A stretch of DNA of 64,000 bases from Patescibacteria group bacterium (GTDB lineage: Bacteria; Patescibacteriota; Microgenomatia; UBA1400; PJMF01), in NCBI GenBank assembly GCA_039934415.1, contig JBDTME010000001.1, positions 137,417 through 201,416 of the forward strand, in the 5' to 3' direction. A program made the translations under genes and the position numbers. This document shows positions 1,451 through 39,477 of this stretch, one piece after another. The stretch's first letter is position 1. Each line of letters starts with the position of its first letter. The notes under the pieces are model-generated. The model worked only from the letters and a program-made list of their open reading frames with translations, searched no databases and was not told the origin of the DNA.

Positions 1451-1454
1451 GAAC

Positions 1455-2717
1455 ATGCCAAAAGTTTCACTCTATTTCGAACTTCATCAGCCCTACCGGT
1501 TAGCTCCTTATTCTATTTTTGAGGTCGGTAGGAATCACGAGTATTTTTCAACAAAATCACACGATAGTAACCGAGAGGTGTTTACAAAAGTTGCACTGAA
1601 ATCTTATATCCCCATGTTAAGTTTGCTCCTTAATTTGACGAAACAGTACAAAGAGTTCGTATGGGCTTTTTCGTGCTCGGGCATCTTTCTTGAACAAGCA
1701 GAAACGTACGTACCTGAAGTACTAGACCTGCTTCAGGAGTTGTTGCGTACGCGGCAAGTCGAAGTATTAGCGGAAACGTATTACCACTCACTTGCCTCTT
1801 TGTATTCCTCCCAAGAATTTTTTCAACAAGTCGATTTACACTCAAAAAAAATAGTTGAATTCTTTGGAGTCAAACCAACTGTTTTTCGAAACACAGAACT
1901 TATTTACTCTGACGCAATCGCTTCACTCGTGGGAGAGATGGGTTACACAGGGATATTGACTGAGGCAGTAGACCGCTATTTGGAAGGACAAAAACGAACA
2001 CAACTTTTCTCATCTTACTCGGCGAAGCGATTGCCTTTAATGCTCAAACATTCCCAACTATCAGATGACATTGCATTTCGATTTTCAGACAAAAGCTGGG
2101 TGAGCTATCCTTTGAAAGCAGAAACCTATGTTCATTGGTTAAATGAGTATCAACAAAATGAAATTGTTAATTTATTCATGGACTTCGAAACGTTTGGCGA
2201 ACATCAATGGGGTGAGACTGGGATTTTTGATTTTTTCCAACACGTTGTTCATCAGTTTATTCAGTATGAATGGAACCAATTCGTGACACCCAGTCAAGCA
2301 ATGCAACTAACCGACGCAAGAAAATTGCCGTTATATAAAGTTGCTGAACCAATTTCTTGGGCAGATATTGACCGAGACCTCTCGGCTTGGCGAGACAACG
2401 AGTTACAGCATGATACATTGCGTTTAATCTATGAATTAGAGTCTCAAGTTAAAGCTACCAATGATAAACAGTTACTGCATGACTGGAGGAAATTACAAAC
2501 CAGCGATCACTTTTATTATATGTGTGTTAAATGGTCTGCTGATGGTGACGTTCATGCGTATTTTAGCCCTTATGAGAACCCTATGGATGCATACGTTAGG
2601 TTCACAACAGTACTTGCTGACATTCAATCTCGTATCTCACAATATCAAGCAAAACCGAGTAGAGTTAGAAGCATGAAGTCATTGAAAAAGAGAGCGCCCG
2701 AGTTTATTCAATATTAA
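1455..2717 (+). CDS. Glycoside hydrolase family 57 protein (alpha-amylase / branching-enzyme-like)
   Basis: 420-aa ORF starting 5 nt after the upstream stop. 'FELHQPYR' matches GH57 conserved region I (HQP). 'GILTEAV' is a candidate nucleophile Glu region. 'FMDFETFGEHQWGE' resembles the GH57 D-x-E-x-FGHW region. Confidence 0.6.
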   Translation: MPKVSLYFELHQPYRLAPYSIFEVGRNHEYFSTKSHDSNREVFTKVALKSYIPMLSLLLNLTKQYKEFVWAFSCSGIFLEQAETYVPEVLDLLQELLRTRQVEVLAETYYHSLASLYSSQEFFQQVDLHSKKIVEFFGVKPTVFRNTELIYSDAIASLVGEMGYTGILTEAVDRYLEGQKRTQLFSSYSAKRLPLMLKHSQLSDDIAFRFSDKSWVSYPLKAETYVHWLNEYQQNEIVNLFMDFETFGEHQWGETGIFDFFQHVVHQFIQYEWNQFVTPSQAMQLTDARKLPLYKVAEPISWADIDRDLSAWRDNELQHDTLRLIYELESQVKATNDKQLLHDWRKLQTSDHFYYMCVKWSADGDVHAYFSPYENPMDAYVRFTTVLADIQSRISQYQAKPSRVRSMKSLKKRAPEFIQY

Positions 2718-2722
2718 TTACA

Positions 2723-4741
2723 GTGATATCTATGGCACGTGCAACAGTACTTTCAAATGGAAACATGCTTGTATGTCTTGATGAAACAGGATTTGTACGA
2801 GATCTTTATTTTCCTTATGTTGGGCTCTCAAATCATGTGAGTGGCTATAAGCATCGCATTGGAATTATGGTGGACAAGACATTTTCGTGGCTGGATGATG
2901 GTCAATGGAAAATCAAAATTTCATACAAAAAAGAAACAATGGTGAGTCAGATGATTGCTCATAACGAACAATTAAAAGTTAGTCTTGTAACTGAAGACCT
3001 GGTATATAACGAAACGAATGTCTTTTTACGAAAAGTTGATATCTATAACCATCAGGAAAAACTAGTCGACATCAAACTTTTTTTCGGGCAAGAGTTCATA
3101 ATTGATGAAGGAAATAAACGTAATACTGGCTTCTACGACCCAACGCACAATGCGATTGTGCACTACAAAGGTCGTCGCGTGTTCATCGTGAATGGCATGA
3201 CTGATTCAGGAAACTCGATCGACGATTATACCGTTGGTTCATTTCAATATGAAAATCGAGAAGGGTCATATAGAGATGCTGAAGACGGTGAGTTAAGTAA
3301 AAATGCTGTTGAGCATGGTTCAGTTGATTCAGTGATTCGATTTTGCACATCTTGTGAAAGTGATCGTAAAACCAGTGTATATTACTGGATTTGTGCTGGT
3401 AAAACACTCAATGAGGCTTACACTCTCAACTCGATGGTACTCCAAAAACAACCTGAGGCAATGCTGCACTCAACCGAACAGTATTGGAATGCCTGGTTGA
3501 ACAAACGTCCCCTGCCAAAAGGCGTGCTTTCAGATTCGAAAAAGAGATTGTTTGACACCTCATTATTTGTCATGCGTGCCCACGTCGATAATCGTGGAGG
3601 AATTATCGCTTCTGCTGATTCGAACATGATCGAGTTTGGCAAAGACGATTATTCATATGTGTGGCCACGTGATGCAGCCTTTATTACGATGACATTGGAC
3701 CAAGCTGGCTATACTGAAGTGACCAAGCCATTTTTTTTATTTTGCAAAGACGTTTTACATGAAGACGGATACTTGCATCACCGATTTAGACCTGATGAGA
3801 GTTTGGGATCGACCTGGCACTCTAGTATCGCTCAAAATGACTGGTTGAAGAATAAAATTTTGCAGCTCCCCATTCAAGAAGACGAAAGTGCGGCCGTCAT
3901 ATTTGCCTTATGGAAACATTATGAGATCACAAAGGACATTGAATTTATGGAGATGTTGTTTAAGCCTCTGACTGAAAAAATCGCGAATTTTCTGATGAGT
4001 TTTCGAGACGATAAGTTAGGACTACCTCTTCATTCTTATGATTTATGGGAAGAGAAAATAGGCGTTTCTACTTATACCTGTGCTTGTGTGTATGGTGGCT
4101 TGATGGCAGCAGCTAAATTTTCAGAACTACTTGGCAAGCGTAACCACTTGCGTCTATACAGGGAAGCAGCGAACCAAATTAAACAAGCAGCTATTGACCA
4201 CTTATTCAGCCCAGAATTAAATTCGTTTGTTCGGTATGCTTACGTTCAGGATGGCAAAGTTGATCGGTTTGAAGTAATAGACGCAAGTTCTTTATTTGGC
4301 TTATGGTACTTCGACATGTTATCACCTGATGACCCTTTGTTTATTGCAACAGAAGAAGCCGTACAGAAACGATTAAAAAATCTAAGTCCACTCGGTGGTT
4401 TTATTCGTTATGAAAATGATAATTATTTTAAATCAACTCAGTATTCTAACTCATGGTTTATCATTACTATGTGGGAAGCGCAGCGTGTGTTACATCGACC
4501 AGTACTTAGTGATCAAGATATTGAGTATGTGAAATCTGTTTTAAACTGGGTAGAAAAATATCAGTCTCCATCTGGTGTTCTAGCAGAACAGATTGACCCA
4601 ATAACTGGTGCTCCCCTTTCTGCTACCCCATTAGTCTGGAGTCATTCAGTGTATGTAGAAACAGTTTTGATGTATATTAAGAAATTGAAAGAGGTTGGTT
4701 TGCTTGATGAACAGACTAATGAACTCCAATATGCTCAATGA
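2723..4741 (+). CDS. Glycoside hydrolase family 15 (glucoamylase/glucodextranase-like) with N-terminal beta-sandwich domain
   Basis: 672-aa ORF. 'YSYVWPRDAAF' matches the W-P-R-D motif at the start of the GH15 (alpha/alpha)6 catalytic domain. 'LWEE' (residue ~444) and a later 'W...E' region fit the general acid/base positions. Size matches archaeal/bacterial GH15 enzymes. Confidence 0.65.
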   Translation: MISMARATVLSNGNMLVCLDETGFVRDLYFPYVGLSNHVSGYKHRIGIMVDKTFSWLDDGQWKIKISYKKETMVSQMIAHNEQLKVSLVTEDLVYNETNVFLRKVDIYNHQEKLVDIKLFFGQEFIIDEGNKRNTGFYDPTHNAIVHYKGRRVFIVNGMTDSGNSIDDYTVGSFQYENREGSYRDAEDGELSKNAVEHGSVDSVIRFCTSCESDRKTSVYYWICAGKTLNEAYTLNSMVLQKQPEAMLHSTEQYWNAWLNKRPLPKGVLSDSKKRLFDTSLFVMRAHVDNRGGIIASADSNMIEFGKDDYSYVWPRDAAFITMTLDQAGYTEVTKPFFLFCKDVLHEDGYLHHRFRPDESLGSTWHSSIAQNDWLKNKILQLPIQEDESAAVIFALWKHYEITKDIEFMEMLFKPLTEKIANFLMSFRDDKLGLPLHSYDLWEEKIGVSTYTCACVYGGLMAAAKFSELLGKRNHLRLYREAANQIKQAAIDHLFSPELNSFVRYAYVQDGKVDRFEVIDASSLFGLWYFDMLSPDDPLFIATEEAVQKRLKNLSPLGGFIRYENDNYFKSTQYSNSWFIITMWEAQRVLHRPVLSDQDIEYVKSVLNWVEKYQSPSGVLAEQIDPITGAPLSATPLVWSHSVYVETVLMYIKKLKEVGLLDEQTNELQYAQ

Positions 4742-5666
4742 GAATAAAAACAACTTTTTTTTAGCTATTGATGGTGGAGGCACGAAAACAACCGTCTGGA
4801 TTGCCGATGAAAGTGGGAACGTTTTGGGTAGAGCGACGACTGGCCCTATGAGTCTTGCTGCAACGACTGAGGCATTGGCCATGGAACATTTTATGACAGC
4901 CATTTCTGAGGCTGTTGAACACCTGGATGTAGCAGGGTTCTCGCAAGTTGTGGTAGGTCTTGCTGGCGTTGACACAGATGAAGAAATCGCCGATGCGTAT
5001 CGTATTTTTTCAACTGCCTTGCATGAACGATTTTCTTTTCTTAATTTTAAAGTTGTGAACGACATTGTGATTGCCCTTGCAAGTGGAAGTACTTCTCCGA
5101 ATACAATATGTTTGATCTCAGGTACTGGTTCTAATTGCTATGGTAGAAATGAACAAGGTGAAACAGCAAAAACTGGTGGCATGGATTACTTGCTCTCAGA
5201 TCAGGGTAGTGGGTTTGAAATTGGACAGCAGGTCCTACGTGCGGCTGTGAAGAGTTTTGATGGGAGATCAAAAAAGACTATGATTGAGGAATTGGTCTGC
5301 CAACATTTTTTTATTGAATCGATTAGTCAATTGAAAGATAAAGTCTACCATCCACTTTTAAATAAAACTCAAATTGGACAATTGTCACAAATTTGTTTTG
5401 CTGCTAAAGAACAACACGATGCGATAGCAAATGAAATAATTGCTGCTTCGATTGAGGAACTTGTAGAAATGGTTGTGACAGTGATGAAGAGGCTTCACCT
5501 AACCAAAAAGTTGACCGATGTTGTTTTAATTGGCGGAATAGCCACCGACCCAGTTGTACACATTCAGCTTGAAGCTAGATTACTAACTCATTTTTCGCAA
5601 ATAAAACTTATTGTTCCAGCTCACCCTCCAGTGTATGGAGCGCTCCAACTGGCTTTACAGAAGTAA
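4695..5666 (+). CDS. BadF/BadG/BcrA/BcrD-type ATPase family sugar kinase (N-acetylglucosamine/glucose kinase-like)
   Basis: 'FFLAIDGGGTKTTVWIAD' is the phosphate-1 motif of ASKHA (BadF/ROK) sugar kinases; an 'ISGTGSNCYG' adenosine-loop-like motif follows. Lies between the glucoamylase and PGI, so a glucokinase role is inferred. The listed ATG overlaps the upstream gene; the true start is probably an internal Met near 4707-4731. Confidence 0.55.
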   Translation: MVCLMNRLMNSNMLNENKNNFFLAIDGGGTKTTVWIADESGNVLGRATTGPMSLAATTEALAMEHFMTAISEAVEHLDVAGFSQVVVGLAGVDTDEEIADAYRIFSTALHERFSFLNFKVVNDIVIALASGSTSPNTICLISGTGSNCYGRNEQGETAKTGGMDYLLSDQGSGFEIGQQVLRAAVKSFDGRSKKTMIEELVCQHFFIESISQLKDKVYHPLLNKTQIGQLSQICFAAKEQHDAIANEIIAASIEELVEMVVTVMKRLHLTKKLTDVVLIGGIATDPVVHIQLEARLLTHFSQIKLIVPAHPPVYGALQLALQK

Positions 5667-5709
5667 TATCAAACTTGAATCACTGACATTTCTGTGCGAT
5701 GATCGCCCT

Positions 5710-7014
5710 ATGAAACTTCTTTACTCCTCCACTTTTTTATATCAGGCTCATGGGGTAACTCATGGTATCAGCAATGAGACCGTTAATGAAAACAAGAAGA
5801 AAGTTGAAGGTGCACTCACCCGAGTCGATAAAAAGGTAGAAAATAAAGAGTACGGTTTTATCAACATTTTATCTGATAAAAAAATGTTGAAGCAAATGGA
5901 GACTGTATTTCACAGTATTCGATTCGCAAAGACTTTAGTCGTGGTAGGAATAGGGGGTTCAGATCTTGGTGGACGAGCAGTTCAACAAGCATTGGAGATG
6001 GATAGACCTGCCATGGACGTCTTTTTCCATGGGGATTCGACTGATCCTGTAGCTATTACTCGATTATTACGTCAGATTGATCTAGATGAGACAGTCTTTT
6101 GTATTATTTCCAAATCTGGGGAAACAATTGAGACAATCTCACAGTATGTTTTGTTTAAAGCGATCATGAAGCAACAGACTGACGAGTGGGCAAATCATTT
6201 TGTATTTATCACCGATGCAAAAAAAGGAATTCTTCGTGAAGAAGCAGTTGAACATGATATTTTGACCTTACCAATTCCTGATGATGTTGGGGGTCGTTTT
6301 TCAGTTCAGACGACTGTAGGACTTTTTCCTTCGCTTGCCATGAGTGTCGATGTTGAGCAGCTTTTAAAAGGGGCAGAGAGTGTAATCAAGGAGTACCGCC
6401 AAATAGCAAAAGATATTGCTATGGATCAATTTTTATTGTACTCACAAGGCATAAAAGTAAATATTTTAATGCCCTACTCAGTTCAACTTGAAGAATTTGC
6501 GCGATGGTATCGTCAACTTTGGGCAGAATCATTGGGCAAACTAGGGGATAAAGGTATTTTACCTATTCAAGCAAGAGGTCCAGCAGATCAGCACTCTCAG
6601 GTTCAGTTTTATACACAAGGTACACTTCTCCACTCATTACTCTTCTTACGTTTAGAAAAGCGTGAGGATGATTACACACTCGATGAAGTCGATATCCCAG
6701 CAGTCAGTTACTTAAAAGGACTTTCGTATCACAAGATTATCAATGTTGAGCAAGAAGCCACTGCTCTAGCTCTAAAAAAACTAGGTAGACCATCTGCAAC
6801 TTTATCCTTAGATACACTTGATGCATTCGGACTAGGCCAGCTATTTATGGTTTTTGAATTAGCTGTCGTCTATTTAGCTGAAATGTTGGAAGTTAATGCT
6901 TTCGACCAGCCAGGAGTCGAAGAAGGTAAAGTAATGATGTACGCATTACTTGGACGATCGGGCTATGAAGACAAAAAGAAAGAGATAGAACAACTCATGA
7001 AAAAAGGAGATTAA
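5710..7014 (+). CDS. pgi: Glucose-6-phosphate isomerase (bifunctional-type short PGI)
   Basis: 'GIGGSDLGG' at nt 5947-5973 is the PGI signature. Further PGI-like regions include 'SKSGETIET' and 'GGRFS'. Start placed at the internal Met (MKLLYSS...), because the listed ORF start at 5611 overlaps the upstream kinase by 56 nt. Confidence 0.75.
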   Translation: MKLLYSSTFLYQAHGVTHGISNETVNENKKKVEGALTRVDKKVENKEYGFINILSDKKMLKQMETVFHSIRFAKTLVVVGIGGSDLGGRAVQQALEMDRPAMDVFFHGDSTDPVAITRLLRQIDLDETVFCIISKSGETIETISQYVLFKAIMKQQTDEWANHFVFITDAKKGILREEAVEHDILTLPIPDDVGGRFSVQTTVGLFPSLAMSVDVEQLLKGAESVIKEYRQIAKDIAMDQFLLYSQGIKVNILMPYSVQLEEFARWYRQLWAESLGKLGDKGILPIQARGPADQHSQVQFYTQGTLLHSLLFLRLEKREDDYTLDEVDIPAVSYLKGLSYHKIINVEQEATALALKKLGRPSATLSLDTLDAFGLGQLFMVFELAVVYLAEMLEVNAFDQPGVEEGKVMMYALLGRSGYEDKKKEIEQLMKKGD

Positions 7015-8492
7015 TTTAGAGGAGTTGTACTTGGCTTTGTTAAATCAATGATGATATAGACAGGTGTTTTCTCGATTACTGTATATCTGTTTTCCAAGTC
7101 GTGCGCTTCATCATCATAATTGGTTGAAACATAAATAGTTGCACCTTTTTGAATTTTGTCTTCAATATCTACACCTATGGGCCACCCTGTTCGATTGGTT
7201 TGAAACAGAAAGTATGTATCACCATCAGCAGGTGCAATAACTTTTGCATCAGTTGGTGTAAGTCTGTCAACGACTTGACCAGCTTCAACATAGTCCCAGT
7301 GATTTACATTGAAATTCCCTTTAAGTTGTTGCCACGCGAGTAGTAACATCCCTACGTTTAAACTTACTACAATTCCTAGTGCTATTTTTTGGCTAGAGAG
7401 TAGATTGGTTAGTATTTTTAGTAACTCCCAACTACCAAGTGAAATAGAGATACAAACAATAGGAGTCATTAAATTTTGGTAGTAATCGTGCTGCACATTT
7501 CCTGTTGCGATCACGGAAAAAAAGAGAGCAATGCTCAACCACCAGAAAAGATAGACAACTTTATCTCGGCTTATTCTTACGAATGCCAGTGGCAAGAAGA
7601 GTATTCCAATATATCCTAAAAACATTTTAGTCAGTCGTTCATAACCCAACCAACGAAACCAAGCAGGTCTGAATCTGATACCATTACTATTAAATAGCCA
7701 AGTTAAGGCGGGAATACCTTCAGGGTATTGTGCAATCCACTTCCTCCAATAATACAGGGGTATGAATGCAATCAGAGCGTATGAGATCAGACCCAGAAAA
7801 AACTGTGCAGAAAGAAATTTTTGAACATCTTTTATTGTTTTAAACTGAAATAGGATTAGGCCTAAATAGACTGGCGCGAGAAAGGCAACGAATGGTTTGA
7901 GAAGTAGTGCAAGTGAAAGACCCACAGCAGACACGAGTAACCACTTTAAGTTTTTTGTGCTCAACCAATTTGAAAAACCTAACAATGAAAATGTTGAAAA
8001 AAATAACATGTATGGTTCGGGCAAAATTGTGCGTGAGTAGTAAACAGAGTATGGCAAGACCGCAAACATGATCGCTGTTACAACAGCAACTCTTTTTCCA
8101 GACAAATTTCTCACTAGGAAATATAAACTCAATAAAGTTCCCAGTGAGACAAGATTTGATAAGAAACGGCTAGTAGGCACAAGTGGTAAAACAGGGATTA
8201 CTTTTAACACAACTGCAGTAAAGGCATTAATGAATGGAAACTCCACCATCCTGTAGCCATGTTGTGCGTTGTTAAGGTTATTGGGAATTGTAGAAAGATC
8301 TTGATAAGTTGGGTGAAGTAGGTCGATACCGTGTTTTAGATATTCACGAGTTACTGAAGCAGTATCTGATTGTCGCCAGCTATGCCAATCAGCCAAAGGA
8401 TAATTAATGCGATAGAGTCTGACCACGAAAGCTACCAGGACAATAAAAGCAATCAGTTTCCACTCATGTTGGGCAATTTTTGATGTGGTCAT
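7011..8492 (-). CDS. GT-C fold membrane glycosyltransferase (PMT_2 / ArnT-like)
   Basis: 493-aa polytopic membrane protein with 10+ predicted TMs. The first extracytoplasmic loop 'DWHSWRQSD' is acidic, as in ArnT/PMT catalytic loops. Soluble C-terminal domain. One of many paralogous GT-C-like proteins in the window. Confidence 0.5.
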   Translation of the reverse strand: MTTSKIAQHEWKLIAFIVLVAFVVRLYRINYPLADWHSWRQSDTASVTREYLKHGIDLLHPTYQDLSTIPNNLNNAQHGYRMVEFPFINAFTAVVLKVIPVLPLVPTSRFLSNLVSLGTLLSLYFLVRNLSGKRVAVVTAIMFAVLPYSVYYSRTILPEPYMLFFSTFSLLGFSNWLSTKNLKWLLVSAVGLSLALLLKPFVAFLAPVYLGLILFQFKTIKDVQKFLSAQFFLGLISYALIAFIPLYYWRKWIAQYPEGIPALTWLFNSNGIRFRPAWFRWLGYERLTKMFLGYIGILFLPLAFVRISRDKVVYLFWWLSIALFFSVIATGNVQHDYYQNLMTPIVCISISLGSWELLKILTNLLSSQKIALGIVVSLNVGMLLLAWQQLKGNFNVNHWDYVEAGQVVDRLTPTDAKVIAPADGDTYFLFQTNRTGWPIGVDIEDKIQKGATIYVSTNYDDEAHDLENRYTVIEKTPVYIIIDLTKPSTTPLN

Positions 8493-8494
8493 GA

Positions 8495-10333
8495 TTATTG
8501 TTTTGGTTTTGGTAATACCGCAGTCTCAACTTTTGAACCTGGTAACTGTGGCCGCATCTTACCTTCTGCTAACTCTCTAGCAAAATAAGAGATGACGAAT
8601 CCACTAAGAGCCCAGTATGTAAAGGCAATTTTGGATGAGGCATAGACGTCAATGTAAACAGCATTCACCAGTAAAGCCACACTTCCTGTTACAAAACCGA
8701 TGGCTACTGCTTTGGCAAAAGATGAAGCTGAACTCAGTAATATCTTACCACTCAAAAACATTCCTATGACAATCGTGCCATAAAAAGTGATAACACCTAG
8801 CAGTCCTGTTTCACCTAGTGTCCTGAGAAAATTATTATCAGTACTTTCGGCCTCTGTAAAATCATCGACGTTGGCTTTAGTTAATGTTGCATAACCAGAG
8901 CCAAGTAGTGGGTTACTTTGGAAGCCGCGTATAGCTTGCGGCCAAAGTGTGTCTAGTCGAATCGCCATAGAAAGACCATACTTGAGTGCATTTTCAGAAT
9001 AGACTCGATCTCTAGTAAAAGACGAAGTTGTAGCGACTCCACTTGCACTCACGGTGGTTACAAAGACTGTATCTGGTACTTGAACATAGACGTCGGACGG
9101 TTGTTGAGTTGTAGGGCGTTCATCTGACGGAACGAGCACGTGCGTATTTTCCTGATCTTCTGCAGTAACAGCATGGCCGTTTTCTGGTGGTTTTACGTCT
9201 GGAAGTTTTGGTGTGTATTTTTGAATGATCGCGCTGAAATTCCCTTGCAACAAACTTTTACGACTCTCGTTCAAGCTGTCGTATGTATCCATTAATGCCG
9301 GATGAGGTTGAAGGATTTGTAAGAATCGCTCAAAAATAGAGTCACCAAATGTGAAAAACATGTATAAGATCATGAACGCAGTCAAAGATCCACGACTAAA
9401 TCCCCACCAAAGTTTCCTTTTCCAAGTAGATTGTTGAGCGACAAACAGTGCAATGAGCAGCATTGCGCCTACCACAAAGCCAGCAAACGAAGCTCTGGAA
9501 GCACTCATGATGAGTAGCCACAGTCCGGCTGTGTACGAGATGAAAAGTGGCACTTTCCATCGCCACTTCTTGGTAGCAAAGAAAATAGCAAGTAACATTG
9601 GCAAGGCAACAGCTAAATAACCGGCCATGTCATAGTGACCACCAAATGTAGATTGAACACGTGCATGTTCTGTTAGATACAGACGTTGTCCCTTACTAAA
9701 CTCACGGTTCATTGTGGAATACAGTGGCCAATAAAAAAACTTTTGGCCGTAACCATACATGGAAATAAGTACCACTGTGGTTGCAAAAATGGCTAGCATC
9801 CAAGTGAAATCTTTTTTTGTTTTGACGGCAGAATAAGCGACAAAGAAGAGTGAGAAATATTCTAAATATCTAAAATAATGCAAAAGAGTTTTTCCTACAT
9901 GAAGCGGTTGTAGAGGAATAGTTTTAGTAATATAGACTGCAGAGATGGTGGATAAGATTCCTACGATTGAATAGGCCAATATTATCCAAGTAAACGGTGT
10001 TTTCCATTGAGCTTTTTTTCGCAGGATTTGTATACCGTAGATCACTATGGTTGCCGCTACAAACAGATCCTCTAGTCTGAGTCGAACAATATAACCTGGG
10101 ATAATATCAGCGAGTGGTAGTTTGGGATAAAGCGGGATGAAAGCAAACAGGAAAGCAGATAGGATCAAAAGAATGTGATTGTCCAACCAATGCAACACTC
10201 GTACAAATCTTGAAGATTTTTTTTCACTGATTGGTAAAGATTTACTCATTGATGTACTTTCAATGCGATCAATTTTTACTAGTGGTTGAGAGCCGATTAA
10301 AGGCTTCTTGGTAGATTTTTTTCTTTTCTGCAT
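8495..10333 (-). CDS. O-antigen ligase / Wzy_C-domain membrane protein (WaaL/PglL-like)
   Basis: 612 aa, about 10 N-terminal TMs. A roughly 170-aa Pro/Thr/Ser-rich extracytoplasmic loop is followed by 'NPLLGSGYATL...ESTDNNFLRTLGETGLLG', resembling the Wzy_C 'HNSYLqvlaElGiiG' block, with D where ligases have the catalytic His; more TMs follow. A probable true start is the internal Met (MSKSLPIS...) at about 10249, which removes the overlap with the upstream GT2. Confidence 0.5.
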   Translation of the reverse strand: MQKRKKSTKKPLIGSQPLVKIDRIESTSMSKSLPISEKKSSRFVRVLHWLDNHILLILSAFLFAFIPLYPKLPLADIIPGYIVRLRLEDLFVAATIVIYGIQILRKKAQWKTPFTWIILAYSIVGILSTISAVYITKTIPLQPLHVGKTLLHYFRYLEYFSLFFVAYSAVKTKKDFTWMLAIFATTVVLISMYGYGQKFFYWPLYSTMNREFSKGQRLYLTEHARVQSTFGGHYDMAGYLAVALPMLLAIFFATKKWRWKVPLFISYTAGLWLLIMSASRASFAGFVVGAMLLIALFVAQQSTWKRKLWWGFSRGSLTAFMILYMFFTFGDSIFERFLQILQPHPALMDTYDSLNESRKSLLQGNFSAIIQKYTPKLPDVKPPENGHAVTAEDQENTHVLVPSDERPTTQQPSDVYVQVPDTVFVTTVSASGVATTSSFTRDRVYSENALKYGLSMAIRLDTLWPQAIRGFQSNPLLGSGYATLTKANVDDFTEAESTDNNFLRTLGETGLLGVITFYGTIVIGMFLSGKILLSSASSFAKAVAIGFVTGSVALLVNAVYIDVYASSKIAFTYWALSGFVISYFARELAEGKMRPQLPGSKVETAVLPKPKQ

Positions 10334-11246
10334 GTCGCAGTATTATACCAAAAAGGACGATCCGAAGTAAGCAGCCAAGCCTCAGGATCTTTCTAGTCAA
10401 TTTAGCCTTCCAGGCAGGAAAATGCTTTTGGGCCAGATGATTCAAGCCAATCAATTCACCGAGTGTCGCTCGAGCGGGAGAACTGCTTGCGGATCCAAAA
10501 TGAGTAATTTCCGTACTCGGAGTATATACTATATCCCAGTGATGATGACGTGCCCTTAAGCAGTACTCGACATCCTCTGAGTACATGAAAATGCCTTCAT
10601 CGAGTAAGCCTATCTGATTAATGACTTCACGTCTAATCATCATTGCTGTTCCGCCTAACCATCCAATCGCCTGTTCAGTGTCAAAGAATGCATCATGTTC
10701 AATGTGGTAGCTCCATCGTGAAGGAAAAATGGCTAAACTTGCTGGCAAAGGTAATAACCACCATAGGATTATTGTCCAAAGATTTGGGAGTGCGCCTCCT
10801 TGTTTTTGAAGTGTGCCATCGAGATTAAGTAACTTGCAACTGATGATGCCAACTTTGTCGAGTGAATTATTTTGAGCTTGTTCGGCTGTGTTTTTATCTG
10901 GATAGCGTGTGAAGACGTTTAGCAACTCTCTGATTGCGTGCGGATGAACCGTTGTGTCAGAGTTCAATAAAAAAATGTATGTCCCTTTAGATCTACGTAT
11001 TCCGATATTATTTGCTTGAGCGAAACCTAGATTATCAGAGTTCGCAATAAGCGTAATGTGTTCGTGGAAGAGTTTTTTTAATTGATGAATTGAAGTATCC
11101 GTCGAATGATTATCAATGACAATCAGTTCACCATCGATGTTAGAGTGAATATACTCATCAAGTACAGACTGAACAGCTTGGCAAGTCAAATCTGCAGTGT
11201 TATAGGAAACAATAATAGTGGAAATGAGTGGAGCAGGACTTTTCAT
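10269..11246 (-). CDS. Family 2 glycosyltransferase (GT-A) with C-terminal amphipathic/TM tail
   Basis: 'IIVSYNTADLT...IVIDNHSTDTS...IFLLNSDT' are classic GT2 motifs (N-terminal beta-strand and DxD-type 'LNSDT'). Hydrophobic C-terminus as in polyprenyl-phosphate sugar synthases. Confidence 0.65.
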   Translation of the reverse strand: MKSPAPLISTIIVSYNTADLTCQAVQSVLDEYIHSNIDGELIVIDNHSTDTSIHQLKKLFHEHITLIANSDNLGFAQANNIGIRRSKGTYIFLLNSDTTVHPHAIRELLNVFTRYPDKNTAEQAQNNSLDKVGIISCKLLNLDGTLQKQGGALPNLWTIILWWLLPLPASLAIFPSRWSYHIEHDAFFDTEQAIGWLGGTAMMIRREVINQIGLLDEGIFMYSEDVEYCLRARHHHWDIVYTPSTEITHFGSASSSPARATLGELIGLNHLAQKHFPAWKAKLTRKILRLGCLLRIVLFGIILRHAEKKKIYQEAFNRLSTTSKN

Positions 11247-11839
11247 TATTGGAACCAGCGGGCTCGCCCCAGTCTATAATTCAATTCTTTAGCTGTTCTT
11301 TTTTTCAGTTCCTTAGCTGGTACTCCACCAACGATACTCATTGTTGGAACGTCTTTAGTGACAACTGCCCCAGCTGCAATTATTGCGCCTCGCCCTATTG
11401 TGACTCCAGGTAAAATAATAGCTCGCGGACCAATGAAGACGTAGTCTTCAATAATAACCTTAGCTTCAATAGCATGAAAATCATTCGAGTTTACATCGTG
11501 CTGGCTTGTCCAGATCATCACTTCAGATGCAATGTCAACATGGTTGCCTATTTTTAATCCACCTTGCGAGTTTAGTAACTGCTTACGACCATCTAATGTT
11601 GCTTTCTCCCCTATGATCGTATCTTCACCAATGGAAATATGCCGTGGGTCGTAAATTCGTGCCATCATGTGAATTGTCGAGCCATGACCAATTCTCATGC
11701 CGAATAGTCGATAGAAAAACCGACGAATGTGATGAAAGGGAACAAAACCTACACCCCACCATAAAAATCCAGTGACGAACTCGAGAATGATCGTGTCTAT
11801 CCGGCGGTAAATTTTTTGATGGATTGGAAGTGTGCTCAT
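11246..11839 (-). CDS. Hexapeptide-repeat (LbH) sugar O/N-acetyltransferase
   Basis: 197 aa. Repeated [LIV]-G-x-x-x-x hexapeptides ('IGHGSTIHMMARIYDPRHISIGEDTIIGEKATL', 'IGPRAIILPGVTIGRGAIIAAGAVV'). N-terminal hydrophobic segment as in WcaF/PglD-like enzymes. Confidence 0.65.
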   Translation of the reverse strand: MSTLPIHQKIYRRIDTIILEFVTGFLWWGVGFVPFHHIRRFFYRLFGMRIGHGSTIHMMARIYDPRHISIGEDTIIGEKATLDGRKQLLNSQGGLKIGNHVDIASEVMIWTSQHDVNSNDFHAIEAKVIIEDYVFIGPRAIILPGVTIGRGAIIAAGAVVTKDVPTMSIVGGVPAKELKKRTAKELNYRLGRARWFQ

Positions 11840-11875: not shown

Positions 11876-12883
11876 CTACTCATCCTCTTTTTTAGTGTAT
11901 TTCTTCCCAAGATGCTCGTAAGCGTGTCTAGTGACAACTCTCCCTCTTGGAGTTCGTTTTAAAAATCCAATTTGAATGAGATAAGGTTCTAAGACTTCCT
12001 CTATCGTAATAGTATCCTCACTCAAAGTTGCAGCGATGGTAGAAAGTCCAACAGGTCCCCCATTATGGCGAAGAATCAATTGTTCCAGTAGTCTTCGGTC
12101 AGAGTGGTCTAGACCATAGGTATCAATTGCAAACATGTCCAGGGCTTTACTTACTTCTGTTAAAGAGATTGCACCATCTGACATCATCTGAGCATAATCA
12201 CGAATACGTTTAAGTAATTTTAGAGCTATGCGAGGCGTGCCTCTTGAGCGTTGGCCAATTTCAAGTGCTGCTGCGTCGTCAATTTTAACATTTAACTTTT
12301 GAGCAGCTTTTAAAGCTATTGTCTTTAACTCTTCAGGCTTGTAGTACTCCAGCCGATGAATCAAGCCAAACCGATCCCGAAACGGTCCGGCTAATGCTCC
12401 AAATCGAGTCGTTGCTCCGACCAAAGTAAAGCGGGGCAAATCAAGTCGAACAGTTCTAGCTGAGGGACCTTTTCCTAAAATGATATCGAGAGCAAAATCT
12501 TCCATGGCTGGATACAATGTTTCTTCAACTGTTTTTGGAAGGCGATGAATCTCATCAATAAATAAAATGTCACCATCCTCCAAGTTAGTGAGAATTGCAG
12601 CGAGATCACCAGGTTTTGTTAGCGCAGTTCCTGATGTGATCCGAATGTTTTTATCCATTTCCTTTGCAATTAAATGGGACAACGTGGTTTTCCCCAATCC
12701 TGGTGGACCATAAAACAAAGTGTGATCCATAACTTCTTCTCTTTGTTTTGCAGCAGTCAAGGAAATTTGCAAAGATTTTTTGATAGTTTCCTGTCCCAAA
12801 AATTCATCCCAACTTTTAGCTCTCAGCGAGATAAGAAGGATTTCGTCTTCAGGTGTTGTAGATTCGAAAGGAGTATCTGTCAT
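11876..12883 (-). CDS. ruvB: Holliday junction branch-migration ATPase RuvB
   Basis: 335 aa. Walker A 'GPPGLGKTT', Walker B 'ILFIDEIHRL', sensor regions and a C-terminal winged helix. Overlaps ruvA by 4 nt. Confidence 0.9.
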   Translation of the reverse strand: MTDTPFESTTPEDEILLISLRAKSWDEFLGQETIKKSLQISLTAAKQREEVMDHTLFYGPPGLGKTTLSHLIAKEMDKNIRITSGTALTKPGDLAAILTNLEDGDILFIDEIHRLPKTVEETLYPAMEDFALDIILGKGPSARTVRLDLPRFTLVGATTRFGALAGPFRDRFGLIHRLEYYKPEELKTIALKAAQKLNVKIDDAAALEIGQRSRGTPRIALKLLKRIRDYAQMMSDGAISLTEVSKALDMFAIDTYGLDHSDRRLLEQLILRHNGGPVGLSTIAATLSEDTITIEEVLEPYLIQIGFLKRTPRGRVVTRHAYEHLGKKYTKKEDE

Positions 12884-13446
12884 TTCGATAACTGTTTTAT
12901 GGCTAATTTAATCACTGATTGGATGCTCATTGCATCATAGTCTATATGTTGCAAAGCCCTGTAAATCTCATCTGTGCCATAACCAAAGTTTTCCAAAGCA
13001 GCTACAACGTCTGCGTATTGTTGAGATTCTGGTTTGAGATCCAACTCTTTGAGGGTGCCTAATTTGGAACGCAGATCAATAATGATTTTCTGTGCTAGCT
13101 TTTTGCCTACTCTTGGAATTTGAGTAAAAAAACCAATATCAGCCTGTTGTACTGCTTGAGTAATTGGCTCCACTCCCCGGTCAGCTATATGCAGCGCTGA
13201 CTTTGGGCCGATTCCGGAAACACTCAATAAGTACTCAAATAATACTTGGTCAGAGGGTGACAAAAAGCCGTAGAAAGAAATTTCATCTTCTCTGACGTGT
13301 GTGTGTATACATAATTCTACTGTTGGTTTATGTAACAGCTGACTGAGTGTGGATGTACCAACATTGACGGCATATCCGACGCCAGCAACGTCAATAATAA
13401 GTTGTTTTCCTAGTAATTTGGGAATACCTCGTAAGCTACCAATCAT
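12880..13446 (-). CDS. ruvA: Holliday junction DNA helicase subunit RuvA
   Basis: 188 aa. 'MIGSLRGI' N-terminus typical of RuvA. Helix-hairpin-helix 'GIGPKSAL'. Lies between ruvC and ruvB. Confidence 0.8.
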   Translation of the reverse strand: MIGSLRGIPKLLGKQLIIDVAGVGYAVNVGTSTLSQLLHKPTVELCIHTHVREDEISFYGFLSPSDQVLFEYLLSVSGIGPKSALHIADRGVEPITQAVQQADIGFFTQIPRVGKKLAQKIIIDLRSKLGTLKELDLKPESQQYADVVAALENFGYGTDEIYRALQHIDYDAMSIQSVIKLAIKQLSK

Positions 13447-13503
13447 AGTTCGGTCTTTATTCGTTTTTTTAACTATACAAGCTAACCTTCATCTCGTGAA
13501 GCT

Positions 13504-14004
13504 CTAGATATTATTTGCTTTTTTTGTCTTTTTACAAACTTGATGTGTCAATCCTATCGCGAGTGCGTCCAAAGTATCATCAAGCAATTTCTCACTCGCA
13601 GGGATTTTCAACTGTAATCGAACCATTTTTTCAATTGCTTTTTTATCAGCCTTGCCATTACCAGTGGCTGCCTGTTTTACTTCAATTGGAGAGTACTCAA
13701 AAATTTTCATGCTATGTTGTAAGCATAAGCCTGTGATTGCACCACGAACTTCAGCTACTCTCATCGCGGTTTTGACGTTTTTAGAAAAAAACAGAGTTTC
13801 AATTGCTAAATCAGTCGGTTGATAGAGTTGAATCATTTTCTCTAGAAATGATATGACTTGAGAAAGCCTTTGAAAGAAAGTTTCATTTTTGTTTGTTTCT
13901 ATGCTCCCGTATTGAAAGCTAGCCTGATCTAATTTGCCAATGACTACCGCCCAACCACAACGATCATAACCTGGATCGATAGCAAGAATTGTAGGAGTAC
14001 TCAT
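13504..14004 (-). CDS. ruvC: Crossover junction endodeoxyribonuclease RuvC
   Basis: 166 aa. 'ILAIDPGYDRCGWAV' is the RNase-H-like N-terminal catalytic Asp motif of RuvC. Gene order is ruvC-ruvA-ruvB. Confidence 0.8.
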   Translation of the reverse strand: MSTPTILAIDPGYDRCGWAVVIGKLDQASFQYGSIETNKNETFFQRLSQVISFLEKMIQLYQPTDLAIETLFFSKNVKTAMRVAEVRGAITGLCLQHSMKIFEYSPIEVKQAATGNGKADKKAIEKMVRLQLKIPASEKLLDDTLDALAIGLTHQVCKKTKKANNI

Positions 14005-15209: not shown

Positions 15210-16432
15210 ATGGTCGCCCTCTCTTCCACTGCTCTGCGATACACTTTAATGGTTTTTTCGGCGGTCGTATCCCAGTTGAATAGTTGAAGTTGCAATTTCA
15301 TAGCTTGTCTACGATGTTCTCGTTCACTGCTATCTTCATTCAATAACTGCTCTAAACCGGTTCGGATACTTTCCACTTCTAGTGGATCGATCAGTTTTGC
15401 AGCTATGCCGCTAATTTCAGACATAGCAGAATTTTGCGAAGTAAGTACCGGTGTCCGATACGAAAACGCTTCTAGAATTGGTAAACCAAAACCTTCATAT
15501 AGTGAAGGATATGCAAAAACTTTAGCATTCTTAAATAAAGTGGTGAGAGTCTTATTTCCAACTCCTCCAAGCAAATGCAGACCTTCTGTCTCTGGATCAA
15601 TTTCTACACCCCACTGCGTCTTGCCTGCAATAACAAGGTCGTACTCTTTTTGGAAAGGTCTCCAGGCTTCAACTAAACGCTCAACATTCTTTCGAGGTTC
15701 GAGCGAGCCCACGAATAAAATAAATGGTTTTGATATGTTAACTTTTTTTAATAAGGCATCTTGTTCTTCTCTTGATAACGAGAGCTGATGTTCAGCTGGT
15801 AACGCTTCATAAACGAGGTGAACTTTCTCTGGTTTGAATCCTAATAGTTCAATGACATCTTTTTTAGTGGCATGACTGACAGCGATAACATGGGAATCAG
15901 TTTGCTTTAGTCTTTTCCAAGCAGCTTGATGTTTTGATAAGGTACTAGGATGTGCTGTCTCAGGAAATTTCAAAATAGCTAGGTCGTGAATGGTTGCTAC
16001 GATTGGAACCGTACTGGCTGGTGGTATTAATTCTTCCCATGCATGGTAGACATCGGTTTTTTCAATGATTGATTCAATTGGTGGCCAGCTGAGTTGATAC
16101 CAAAGTGTGGGCCAAATACTTGGAGGGAGCGGTAATACTTTTGAGTTACTTAACTTCTTATGCTCTTCAATAAATTTTCGAAGCATAGGCTGCTGGCGTA
16201 GCGAACTACCAAATGCGCTAATTTTAACGTCATTTTGTCTAAGTAATGCACTCACCAAATTTGTCGTATAAAAGGAGACGCCTCGTTTGTAGACAATAGG
16301 TGAGATATCAATCGTGATGTTGAGTGTTGTCGGCAAAACTGCCACCTTTCGTGAAAACTCGGACAAACCCAAGATTGGGTTCGTCAAAGAGCTGACCTGG
16401 TTGGTAATTATATTGTAGTAAATACTGTTCAA
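15206..16432 (-). CDS. Family 4 glycosyltransferase (GT-B)
   Basis: 408 aa. 'FILFVGSLEPRKN...EGFGLPILEA' (E-x7-E). The N-terminal 'LNITIDISP' is typical of GT4 starts, so the true start is probably a TTG/near-cognate codon around 16334; the listed ATG overlaps the upstream gene by 125 nt. Confidence 0.65.
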   Translation of the reverse strand: MNSIYYNIITNQVSSLTNPILGLSEFSRKVAVLPTTLNITIDISPIVYKRGVSFYTTNLVSALLRQNDVKISAFGSSLRQQPMLRKFIEEHKKLSNSKVLPLPPSIWPTLWYQLSWPPIESIIEKTDVYHAWEELIPPASTVPIVATIHDLAILKFPETAHPSTLSKHQAAWKRLKQTDSHVIAVSHATKKDVIELLGFKPEKVHLVYEALPAEHQLSLSREEQDALLKKVNISKPFILFVGSLEPRKNVERLVEAWRPFQKEYDLVIAGKTQWGVEIDPETEGLHLLGGVGNKTLTTLFKNAKVFAYPSLYEGFGLPILEAFSYRTPVLTSQNSAMSEISGIAAKLIDPLEVESIRTGLEQLLNEDSSEREHRRQAMKLQLQLFNWDTTAEKTIKVYRRAVEERATI

Positions 16433-17831
16433 TGTAATGATTTGGATCAGTCAGGTCAGTTAAATAATCAAAAACGATCACGTTCTGATAATCCAGTGCT
16501 CGAACCATATTCGGTTCAACCTGAGAGAACTCTGTTTTAGTTGTGGTACCCACATTAATCGTCGAAAATGGTTGATGGGTATACCAGTCCCAAGGTGAAA
16601 AAGGATGATCAAAACCGAACACAATGACTGTGTTTGTTGAAGAAAACTGACCATCAATAGTTCTGATTACAGTTCTCCAATCTTCCCTATGGTATTGTGG
16701 ATCCATGAAATATGAAAAAGTCCCAAAGAGATGAGTAGCCACTAATATGCTCAGCAAGCCAACAGCGGCAAGCTTAGTCCTTTTCCATTCCCAACCATAC
16801 ACCACCATAGTAGCGAGTAACAGTTCCATTGCTGGTAAAGCGAATAAGACTCTTTTAGGTTGCAGTACTGGCAAGAAGAAAGAAAAAATCCAAATTGAAA
16901 ATACTGGAAGAACGAACCAGCACCCGACGACTAAACTGGTGGTCATGCCAATTCGTTTACGTAAACTCCATAGTAGAAATAGTAATGTAATAATGAAAAT
17001 GAGACTAATCGAGATAAAAACTATGTTGGTTTCCAAGTTTATTACTCCAAATAAAAACTTTCCAAAAACAAGTTGTAATGCCTTGAGCTGAGGGGTACTG
17101 ACCACCATTTCCCATGTTGGTGTTTGAGTGCGCAGATGAGCACTCACTTGCAGTTGTTCTTTGAGGAAAGGTAACCATGGCAAGAAGGCGATTGTAGTGA
17201 TAACACCTGAAATTACTGCTTGTCTGACATGAACCACATTTCGACGTGTGCATAAAAACAAAAGCTGACCGATGAGTGCAAAAGGATAAAGATAAGTTGA
17301 GTACAAGCCTGCAATACTAGTGAAAATAAACAGGATGAGGAGCTTTGGTTTTATAATTGAGTGTTCACTCATATACAAGACTAGTAACCAGCCCAAAGCA
17401 GCCCAAAGTCCTGTTAATGCATAGGGCCGAAGCTCTTGCGAATAAAATAGATGAAAAGGGTTAAAAGATAACAGCAATGCCGTCAAAATAGCTATTTTTT
17501 GGTTTGTCAGCTTCTTTGCTATCAAGTAGGTCACCCAAATCATTACAAGTCCATCTGAAAGTGGACTAAGTCGGAGCCACCATTCTGAATGACTAACTAC
17601 CGTCATGAAATGAGTAATTAGGTGCATTAGAGGTGGTTGAAAATCTTCTTTGATCATGAGCTGCTGAGACAGAGGTCGTGCACTCTCAATTGCTTGTGCT
17701 GCCTCATCAAGCCAGAAGGAACCATTGAGCAAGGGAATTCTGAGGAGGAATGCTAAGATCAAAATTGGCCATATAAACCAACTTTTTGAGCTATTCTCCA
17801 GGCTAAAACTAAGTTTCGGATTTTTTTTCAC
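16308..17831 (-). CDS. GT-C fold membrane glycosyltransferase (PMT_2/ArnT-like)
   Basis: 507 aa, polytopic. First loop 'SFWLDEAAQAIESAR' carries a DE motif like the PMT/ArnT catalytic loop. Soluble C-terminal domain. Confidence 0.5.
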   Translation of the reverse strand: MKKNPKLSFSLENSSKSWFIWPILILAFLLRIPLLNGSFWLDEAAQAIESARPLSQQLMIKEDFQPPLMHLITHFMTVVSHSEWWLRLSPLSDGLVMIWVTYLIAKKLTNQKIAILTALLLSFNPFHLFYSQELRPYALTGLWAALGWLLVLYMSEHSIIKPKLLILFIFTSIAGLYSTYLYPFALIGQLLFLCTRRNVVHVRQAVISGVITTIAFLPWLPFLKEQLQVSAHLRTQTPTWEMVVSTPQLKALQLVFGKFLFGVINLETNIVFISISLIFIITLLFLLWSLRKRIGMTTSLVVGCWFVLPVFSIWIFSFFLPVLQPKRVLFALPAMELLLATMVVYGWEWKRTKLAAVGLLSILVATHLFGTFSYFMDPQYHREDWRTVIRTIDGQFSSTNTVIVFGFDHPFSPWDWYTHQPFSTINVGTTTKTEFSQVEPNMVRALDYQNVIVFDYLTDLTDPNHYIEQYLLQYNYQPGQLFDEPNLGFVRVFTKGGSFADNTQHHD

Positions 17832-39474: not shown

Positions 39475-39477
39475 AAT

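Follow-up and report, generated by a model that had tools for sequence, protein, structure and literature searches.

The stretch of DNA considered here (the window) comprises 64,000 nucleotides of the genome of a Patescibacteria group bacterium, with a GC content of about 40%, and carries on its minus strand a gene for a predicted polytopic membrane protein of the Wzy_C family, in which an aspartate appears at the position of the catalytic histidine of WaaL, an O-antigen ligase. The first-pass annotation of this open reading frame (ORF), made from the sequence alone, labeled the product a ligase or protein O-oligosaccharyltransferase (O-OTase) of the WaaL/PglL type, and proposed that the aspartate, or a Pro/Thr-rich linker preceding it, might signify altered chemistry or an inactive scaffold. 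The comparison with related enzyme families and the conservation of the protein suggest, instead, an active glycan transferase, probably of the polymerase type. The gene, hereafter Wzy_C(Asp), and the features within it on which this interpretation turns are the following:

8495 to 10333, minus strand: the Wzy_C(Asp) gene, a 612-residue ORF as annotated, encoding a predicted WaaL-fold polytopic membrane glycosyltransferase (GT) of the GT-C_B subclass, clan GT-C1-like
10247 to 10249, minus strand: codon of M29, the probable true start, an ATG 19 nt past the stop codon of the upstream family 2 GT (GT2) gene
9629 to 9733, minus strand: external loop, residues 201-235 (YWPxYSTMNREFSKG..L.LT.HARVQSTF.GHYD), invariant, with R225 (equivalent to R161 of Escherichia coli WaaL), H223, H233 and D235
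9494 to 9496, minus strand: codon of R280 in the SASR motif, invariant, aligned by hhalign and by the WaaL hidden Markov model (HMM) with R215 of E. coli WaaL and R191 of C. metallidurans WaaL (CmWaaL)
8996 to 9211, minus strand: family-specific insert spanning residues 375-446, the segment called a "Pro/Thr-rich linker", ordered in part, in which Pro and Asp residues are conserved and a beta-hairpin is predicted at 421-441
8957 to 8959, minus strand: codon of R459 in the AIRLD motif, invariant, aligned by hhalign with R288 of E. coli WaaL and R265 of CmWaaL
8795 to 8914, minus strand: Wzy_C signature block, residues 474-513 (NPLLGSGYATLTK...FTEAESTDNNFLRTLGETGLLG), inside the best Pfam stretch and near-invariant in 67-120 homologs
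8837 to 8839, minus strand: codon of D499, the invariant Asp at the acceptor-activating His position of WaaL and the proposed general base

Gene, family and predicted fold

The ORF was recovered exactly as first annotated, and so was its family. A search with the Pfam profile Wzy_C (PF04932), which the first-pass annotation had put forward as the check on its assignment, with a missing match to count against it, returned the window protein at 38.3 bits against a gathering cutoff of 31.7 (E 1.5e-9), and the same profile matches all 67 of the aligned homologs. The match is split into two stretches because an insert interrupts the domain, the best one placing residues 453-517 on profile positions 78-148 of 149. 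Among the NCBIfam models, only IctB was matched, below threshold, and Pfam detected in the window protein neither the FtsW/RodA family (FTSW_RODA_SPOVE) nor a TPR or other protein-recognition module. When the chains of the Protein Data Bank (PDB) were searched by sequence, neither the single sequence nor the 67-sequence profile gave an informative match, to the WaaL structure 7TPG or to any other chain (only Cox5c, E 0.6), and therefore the link to WaaL rests on Pfam and on the fold. The AlphaFold2 (AF2) model built from the 67-sequence alignment (mean pLDDT 80.8, pTM 0.83) had a sole significant Foldseek match in the PDB, WaaL 7tpg_B (E 2.1e-4, probability 1.00, TM-score 0.60 normalised on WaaL), with the runner-up at E 0.27 and no SEDS structure among the matches. 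The predicted architecture, polytopic and helical, superposable on WaaL and with a long external loop near the C-terminus, is that of the GT-C_B fold; hydropathy and charge analysis placed the K/R-rich N-terminus and the short loops inside and predicted the net acidic, 171-residue loop 335-505 to be extracytoplasmic, in agreement with the topology of WaaL. Thus, by profile and by model, the gene product is a Wzy_C protein of the WaaL/Wzy fold. Like WaaL (GT121; structures 7TPG and 7TPJ; E. coli), it combines the Wzy_C domain with about 12 transmembrane (TM) helices and a large external loop before the last of these; unlike WaaL, the family has about 100 extra residues inserted into that loop as well as the strongly conserved 35-residue loop 201-235.

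The 612-residue ORF matches, with 100% identity, an NCBI protein encoded in a metagenome-assembled genome (MAG) of the Patescibacteria group, labeled "hypothetical protein"; in public annotation, family members are either "hypothetical" or "O-antigen ligase family protein". The actual protein probably consists of 584 residues starting at M29 (nt 10249), because residues 1-40 show no conservation in the homolog alignments, the N-terminus lies 67 residues from the PLYPK motif, compared with a median of 33 in homologs, and an in-frame ATG follows the GT2 stop codon. A paralog scan of the 64 kb of the window found this one copy of Wzy_C and no second.

The Pro/Thr-rich extracytoplasmic linker of the first-pass annotation is confirmed as part of the loop predicted to lie outside, but the label is too strong for its composition: in residues 375-446, Pro (11%) and Thr (14%) reach about twice the protein average, and Val is the commonest residue. 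Nor does it behave as a linker. P383, D404, P407, P412, D414, V415, P420, G432, R443 and S446 are invariant; the AF2 model contains a beta-hairpin at 421-441, with pLDDT below 50 only at 391-406; and, among 65 homologs, the spacing between STMNRE and AIRLD stays within 238-259 residues, a range of about 20, whereas that between AIRLD and the DN of the active-site motif is exactly 42 in all 65. Judging from the alignments and the model, this segment is a structured, length-constrained, family-specific insert in the catalytic external loop rather than a low-complexity or mucin-like spacer.

The active-site register and its conservation

The assignment of D499 depends on a comparison with WaaL, the functional residues of which have been named. 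In CmWaaL, R191 and R265 bind the diphosphate of undecaprenyl diphosphate (Und-PP), and H313 activates the acceptor (PMC10920833); E. coli K-12 WaaL, with its invariant H336-L-H338-N339, aligns to the CmWaaL structure 7TPG so that H338 corresponds to H313, R215 to R191 and R288 to R265. Four lines of evidence place D499 in register with this histidine. Pfam puts residues 205-354 of E. coli WaaL on positions 6-146 of the Wzy_C profile, and, when one counts backwards from where the matches end, along an ungapped helix, D499 and H338 coincide at profile position 130. Alignment of the C-terminal segments with hhalign, for which trimming was required as the full-length alignment of the family with E. 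coli WaaL stalled at the insertion, pairs D499 with H338, N500 with N339, G510 with G349 and G513 with G352, and, under permissive or global settings, also S455 with S284 and R459 with R288. The H-N-x9-G-x2-G spacing is identical in WaaL and the window protein, with Asp in place of His. Finally, the WaaL HMM aligns HARVQSTFGGHYD...SASR of the window protein with NDRISFGVGTATGAAY...TQTR of E. coli WaaL, which matches R225 to R161 and R280 to R215 (the best family members scoring E 3e-6 to 8e-5). The first-pass annotation had identified the block NPLLGSG...STDNNFLRTLGETGLLG as the Wzy_C signature and had noted within it an Asp replacing the ligase His; both points stand, the block being present at residues 474-513 and almost wholly invariant in the family, and D499 corresponding to H338 of E. 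coli WaaL and H313 of CmWaaL. By these alignments, D499 occupies the catalytic His position, and the arginine framework of WaaL is intact (R280 and R459, both aligned and invariant), only the His being replaced.

The replacement is a property of the family, which we sampled as the 67-sequence alignment, as 120 homologs at about 50% identity to the query and as the 150 best diverse representatives. More than 2,000 homologs were found in an NCBI protein search, and a HMMER scan of 1.84 billion cluster representatives yielded 4,339 matches at E <= 1e-3, 819 at <= 1e-10 and 309 at <= 1e-30, the last figure amounting to about 309 clusters at 50% identity. Identity to the query is only about 50% in the 120 homologs, and yet conservation reaches at least 95% at 133 positions. 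In the 67-sequence alignment, R225, R280, S455, R459, G470, G478 and G480 are invariant, and so is the whole block S497-T-D499-N-N-x-L-R-x-L-G-E-T-G. Among the 150 representatives, every one that covers the D499 site, apart from P0216, has Asp there (124 by motif search and 16 by hmmalign); P0216 reads TANDY, and the rest are C-terminally truncated fragments that do not reach the site. None of the approximately 140 informative representatives has His at this position. Such conservation of the motif is, at the level of sequence, the signature of a functional residue and not of decay. A further detail, R459-X10-G470, resembles the RX10G motif described for the Wzy polymerase of Pseudomonas aeruginosa (PMC12004945); 87 of 125 representatives have it, and it offers weak support for a polymerase.

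Relatives were detected in 273 GTDB species, in a scan of one genome per species, and nearly all of these are labeled Patescibacteria, Pacebacteria, Paceibacterota, Microgenomates or Woesebacteria, with a more divergent member coming from Roizmanbacteria. As far as sampled, the family is restricted to Patescibacteria. Dozens of the MAGs that carry the locus have record titles (within the set L004-L083) reading "uncultured Pseudomonadales bacterium", and others are titled Methylococcaceae, Limisphaerales, Flavobacteriaceae or Vitreimonas; these are almost certainly taxonomic mislabels.

The conserved locus and the fusions to GT-C enzymes

The genes around Wzy_C(Asp) in the window are arranged as follows:

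7011 to 8492, minus strand: GT-C enzyme of the PMT/PMT_2 type, 493 residues (Pfam), directly downstream, a conserved partner
10269 to 11246, minus strand: GT2 glycosyltransferase, 325 residues (Pfam), directly upstream, a conserved partner
11246 to 11839, minus strand: WcaF-like hexapeptide O-acetyltransferase, 197 residues (Pfam and NCBIfam), position kept, 60-83% identity
11876 to 17831, minus strand: upstream part of the locus by synteny, with RuvB, RuvA, RuvC, two GT4 enzymes and a second PMT_2 GT-C

Synteny was assessed in 80 loci fetched from the 273 species, and also with wider flanks. The GT2 gene lies immediately upstream in about 77 of the 80, the PMT_2 gene comes next on the downstream side, in the same orientation, in nearly all of those that have flanking sequence, and the acetyltransferase, the RuvBAC genes and the GT4 pair hold their positions. 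The wider flanks contain, on the same strand, PMT, GT4, GT2, a small ORF with two TM helices, GT4, GT4, a ManC-like NTP-transferase, a phosphoglycosyl transferase (PGT) of the Bac_transf family and DUF4012; the PGT was found in 48 of the 80 loci, right where the 8-kb flank ends. In the capsular/exopolysaccharide locus of Bifidobacterium longum, the priming GT is likewise located beside DUF4012, followed by wzz (PMC5412050), and DUF4012 has been reported to be enriched in Gram-positive bacteria and in the Candidate Phyla Radiation (CPR), for which a shared, Gram-positive-like envelope has been argued (PMC6744442). A Polysacc_synt (Wzx) gene adjoins Wzy_C(Asp) in a single locus, L085, directly upstream, and in some relatives the neighbor is an EamA transporter or an unannotated multi-TM protein of 433 residues. 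From its gene content, the conserved locus looks like that of a candidate Und-PP-dependent, Wzx/Wzy-style surface-polysaccharide pathway, in which Wzy_C(Asp) is the only recognisable candidate for a polymerase or ligase. The pathway with transfer of an Und-PP-linked glycan en bloc that the first-pass annotation had envisaged gains support from the loci of relatives, where a priming PGT accompanies GT4 and GT2 genes and a Wzx is on occasion the direct neighbor. The two "Wzx-like flippases" cited in its favor fared less well: the ORF at 50349-51539 does match Polysacc_synt, whereas that at 22901-24166 has no Pfam support as Wzx even at E <= 1, and a functional link to these distant ORFs did not emerge, the conserved partners being the flanking GT2, acetyltransferase and PMT-type GT-C.

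The association with GT-C enzymes extends to fusion. Among the 150 representatives, 66 are at least 700 residues long (700-1,270), with the Wzy_C(Asp) module at the N-terminus, and their extensions fall into three classes. In P0158 and P0175, the module is fused to orthologs of the PMT_2 enzyme encoded downstream in the window (38-42% identity over about 490 residues; Pfam PMT/PMT_2). In a second class of about 25 representatives, the extension is homologous to the 848-residue product of the window ORF 31089-33635 (family HMM, E 4e-23) and, at the profile level, is similar to the N-terminal, catalytic portion of PMT_2 (hhalign probability 92%, E 6e-7). In the third, of about 38 representatives, the hhalign probabilities are 47% to PMT_2 and 77% to the second class. 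The last class is the largest among the long forms (970-1270 residues), with a C-terminal extension of some 600 residues that has no Pfam match (for example, L085 6001-9399), and one of its members, P0138, includes an additional calcineurin-like metallophosphoesterase domain. GT-C_A enzymes use polyprenyl-monophosphate sugars (Table 1 of PMC10920833), and a precedent for a GT fusion exists in WadA, where a GT121 domain is joined to GT25 (PMC10920833). The recurrence of fusions to GT-C_A-type enzymes argues for two external reactions coupled on one product, and from these gene architectures we infer such a coupling for Wzy_C(Asp). Literature searches for Wzy_C with PMT_2, and for CPR or Patescibacteria with O-antigen ligase or Wzy_C, returned nothing relevant.

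Several other features of the window merit mention. The 848-residue ORF 31089-33635 itself, a protein with about 13 TM helices and no Pfam match, is probably an unannotated GT-C glycosyltransferase; it belongs to a compact plus-strand module (29594-33635) together with a GT2 gene (29594-30622) and an ORF for a 166-residue protein with two TM helices (30616-31116). The 64 kb include at least four GT-Cs of the PMT_2 type (7011-8492, 16308-17831, 48719-50293 and 60378-62111), and further multi-TM ORFs, probably 31089-33635, 55221-56933 and 58775-60385, resemble these weakly at the profile level, which makes for an unusually dense array of enzymes dependent on polyprenyl-phosphate sugars. For the conserved trio of GT2, small ORF and PMT, we considered a three-component GtrB/GtrA/GT-C system and rejected it: the small ORF has only two TM helices and no GtrA match in Pfam, the second GT2 lacks TM helices, and the adjacent GT2 scores no better than E 0.02 against ArnC/GtrB-type models. 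Neither the window (5611-8492) nor L004 and L005, the loci of its closest relatives, has the downstream half, the place of which is taken by an opposite-strand gene for phosphoglucose isomerase (PGI), accompanied in L005 by those for glucose-6-phosphate and 6-phosphogluconate dehydrogenases (G6PD and 6PGD), also on the opposite strand; compared with L087 and L088, this is a lineage-specific rearrangement. Midway along the locus, the GT4 pair and the acetyltransferase flank the recombination genes ruvC, ruvA and ruvB (11876-14004, minus strand), in an order kept in about 80 species-level genomes, with no obvious functional reason for their presence within a glycan-biosynthesis locus.

Farther away, the plus-strand ORF 22901-24166 (421 residues; best Pfam match SLATT_6 at E 0.026) sits between a flavodoxin gene and a run of GT2, GT4, DegT and GNAT genes, and might just as well encode some other transporter or a Wzy that escaped recognition. 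On the minus strand, an MBOAT O-acyltransferase (39478-40884) adjoins an AlgX-like SGNH protein (38275-39474), a pair (38275-40884) that looks like the AlgI/AlgX- or Dlt/Pat-style pairs for extracytoplasmic O-acylation of polysaccharides. The GC content declines from about 0.40 over 1-28 kb to 0.33-0.36 over 28-50 kb, and the low-GC stretch (approximately 28000-50000), which encodes GT2, GT4, sugar-nucleotide dehydratases/epimerases, a methyltransferase and large ORFs without Pfam matches (for example, one of 1134 residues at 45011-48415), is possibly a glycan island that varies or was acquired horizontally. Near the beginning of the window, 227-7014 (plus strand) is an alpha-glucan/glycogen-type cluster, with a glycogen-synthase-like GT5/GT4, GH57, a glucoamylase-like GH15, a sugar-kinase-like ATPase of the BadF/BcrAD type and PGI.

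Proposed catalysis and role

In the light of the published analysis at the clan level, the aspartate becomes readily explicable. Clan GT-C1 unites SEDS (GT119), the O-antigen ligases (GT121, O-Lig) and the inverting Wzy-type polymerases of families GT125-GT129; the essential Asp of SEDS and an Asp or Glu of the polymerases align with the O-Lig His and have been put forward as activating the acceptor, and a carboxylate is found at this position in all the inverting Wzy-type families but one, GT127 (PMC10920833). For RodA, the base that takes the proton from the acceptor is Asp262, described as "analogous to His338 in WaaL" (PMC10449877). By analogy, then, a carboxylate at the His position is a known active state, that of polymerases and not of ligases or O-OTases, and the altered chemistry suspected in the first-pass annotation dissolves into what is the rule in SEDS and in the inverting Wzy-type families (PMC10920833, PMC10449877). 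Because the polymerases and SEDS of the clan carry Asp or Glu there, D499 points away from a ligase of the WaaL/PglL type and towards polymerase-type catalysis. The WaaL/PglL label was correct as to the Wzy_C family and the WaaL fold, but is weakened by the lack of the His on which it depended. With D499, R280 and R459, the family displays the combination reported for the polymerases (BP-Pol), namely, Asp or Glu at the O-Lig His position and one or two conserved arginines (PMC10920833).

The same evidence bears on the proposal that the protein is a dead scaffold, a pseudo-enzyme whose sole function, the ligase His having been lost, is to organise partners such as the PMT-type GT-C. The canonical His is indeed absent, and fusion or adjacency to another enzyme is frequent, as such a scaffold might predict; but D499, the STDNN-LR-LGETG block, R225, R280, R459 and the 35-residue loop remain invariant at about 50% identity, as befits an active site under purifying selection, and related families use Asp or Glu at this site for catalysis (PMC10920833, PMC10449877). 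With the D499 motif invariant in the 67 homologs, Asp in all representatives covering the site but P0216, and the arginines kept, we reject this reading on conservation grounds and consider it very improbable. The gene product, so far as comparative evidence can tell, is most likely an active transferase of Und-PP-linked glycans.

The role that appears most likely for this transferase is that of an inverting, Wzy-type polymerase of a conserved cell-envelope polysaccharide of the Patescibacteria lineage, a specific assignment to which we give roughly even credence; it is suggested by the carboxylate in the polymerase/SEDS state, the unusual conservation of the family and its single copy in what looks like a Wzx/Wzy-style locus. 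Like the GT125-GT129 polymerases, Wzy_C(Asp) would operate alongside a priming PGT and GT genes. Unlike Wzy polymerases, which are normally highly divergent, the window family is very conserved and frequently fused to GT-C_A enzymes, a fusion not reported for Wzy in the literature searched. Sequence diversity within the clan is lowest where donor and acceptor are invariant, as in SEDS and the polymerase of enterobacterial common antigen, and highest in ordinary Wzy (PMC10920833), so that the unusual conservation of Wzy_C(Asp) fits a single, conserved donor/acceptor pair. In this respect, as in the GT-C_B subclass and the acceptor-activating Asp at the equivalent position, the family resembles SEDS (RodA/FtsW, GT119; PMC10449877, PMC10920833); unlike SEDS, it yields no Foldseek match to a SEDS structure and no FtsW/RodA match in Pfam, and its setting is one of glycan assembly with a Bac_transf PGT rather than of cell division with a class B penicillin-binding protein (PBP) as partner, no PBP being found in the conserved locus.

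In the proposed mechanism, the donor would be an Und-PP-linked oligosaccharide, the diphosphate of which would be held by R280 and R459, with the participation of R225, whereas D499, at the start of the following TM helix, would deprotonate the acceptor hydroxyl in the manner of RodA Asp262 and the WaaL His; the adjacent, sometimes fused, PMT-type GT-C would add to the same product a sugar from a polyprenyl-monophosphate donor. We infer the Und-PP donor, the Asp as base, the activity and the polymerase role from sequence comparison. A number of observations weigh against a polymerase. The closest sequence model and the sole structural match are both to O-antigen ligases, and the ligase-style H-N-x9-G-x2-G spacing is kept; the trimmed-fragment hhalign alignments that help to fix the register are individually weak (E 0.02-0.1), yet agree with the match at the Pfam level; the conserved locus has no recognisable chain-length regulator of the Wzz/PCP kind; and, within the 64-kb window, where the downstream half of the locus is absent, there is no homolog of the PGT, ManC or DUF4012, and the nearest confirmed Wzx lies 40 kb from the gene.

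Two further explanations retain the activity and change the acceptor. Wzy_C is also the domain of PglL, PilO and the predicted S-layer O-OTases WsaB and WsfB of Gram-positive bacteria (PMC2943079), which act with an Und-PP-glycan donor, WsaB and WsfB in Gram-positive envelopes, and, by this comparison, the window protein could be an O-OTase with Asp instead of His as the base, its acceptor being a Ser, Thr or Tyr residue in some secreted protein (an S-layer protein or type IV pilin, for instance) that would receive the glycan en bloc. CPR bacteria are rich in type IV pili and have a predicted Gram-positive-like envelope (PMC6744442), the closest structure is that of a ligase, and the adjacent GT-C belongs to the PMT family, the founding members of which O-mannosylate proteins. 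Nevertheless, we regard an O-OTase as unlikely: no representative of the family has His at the catalytic position, no pilin or S-layer acceptor gene was seen in the conserved locus, and the very high conservation of the external loop would be atypical of promiscuous O-OTases. PglL has His at the position aligned to the WaaL His. In PglS, the residue there is a His as well, H324, hypothesised to be the catalytic base, and the H324A mutant served as an inactive control (PMC12800693). Nor does the window family have a TPR or an extra C-terminal recognition domain. Alternatively, in a monoderm analogue of WaaL, a finished Und-PP-linked polysaccharide would be ligated to a non-protein anchor, such as a lipoglycan-like membrane glycolipid or a cell-wall glycan. 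The WaaL fold, the Wzy_C signature and both diphosphate-binding arginines are compatible with such a terminal ligase, and a single invariant acceptor would account for the strong conservation; GT121 O-Lig members are reported in Gram-positive bacteria, and WadA shows that fusion to an acceptor-preparing glycosyltransferase has a precedent (PMC10920833). Against this stands the conserved His of the GT121 ligases at the very site where a carboxylate marks polymerases and SEDS (PMC10920833). Moreover, a second, Wzy-like polymerase that might supply the polymer was not apparent in the conserved locus, although unannotated multi-TM ORFs occur there (such as those for 539 residues in L085 and 433 residues in L088). 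We judge this option to be as improbable as the O-OTase. The O-antigen or lipooligosaccharide variant of en-bloc transfer included in the first-pass annotation is unlikely in a CPR organism with a predicted Gram-positive-like envelope (PMC6744442): a lipid A-core acceptor, as used by WaaL, is not expected in a host predicted to be monoderm, and no lipopolysaccharide genes were seen in the 64-kb window, itself a part of the genome.

Returning to the polymerase, its recurrent partnership with GT-C enzymes invites a broader and more speculative scenario. In CPR of the Pacebacteria/Microgenomates type, a single invariant glycopolymer of the envelope, one that defines the lineage, could have Wzy_C(Asp) as its dedicated polymerase (or ligase), and this enzyme would form, with the PMT-like GT-C that is fused to it in many species, a machine with two active sites, one of which would transfer Und-PP-linked blocks via the Asp base, whereas the other would add polyprenyl-phosphate-linked sugar to the same product. 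Like WadA, such a machine would join an Und-PP-dependent GT-C_B enzyme to a glycosyltransferase acting on the same acceptor (PMC10920833); unlike in WadA, the partner would be a membrane GT-C_A enzyme (PMT/ArnT-like, dependent on polyprenyl-monophosphate sugar) rather than a soluble GT25, and in the window the two are encoded by separate, adjacent genes. We advance this proposal tentatively. If it is true, this would be a previously undescribed "polymerise-and-decorate" tandem of GT-C_B and GT-C_A enzymes and, possibly, a marker and a handle for the cell surface of CPR episymbionts.

The replacement of His by Asp, the anomaly that motivated this study, is thus ordinary, having been explained by the published clan-level analysis. 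What is new is the CPR-specific, conserved clade itself, in which a ligase-like signature is found together with a base of the polymerase type, an insert particular to the family, a conserved locus spanning about 20 kb and recurrent fusions to GT-C enzymes. For annotation, this distinction is useful, given that current pipelines label such proteins "O-antigen ligase family" in organisms without an O-antigen. The envelope of CPR bacteria mediates their episymbiotic lifestyle and is, biochemically, essentially uncharacterised; the large and strongly conserved clade of the WaaL/Wzy/SEDS group defined here, with its catalytic hypothesis (an Asp base and two arginines), its locus and its recurrent PMT-like fusions, offers concrete targets for mutagenesis and heterologous reconstitution.

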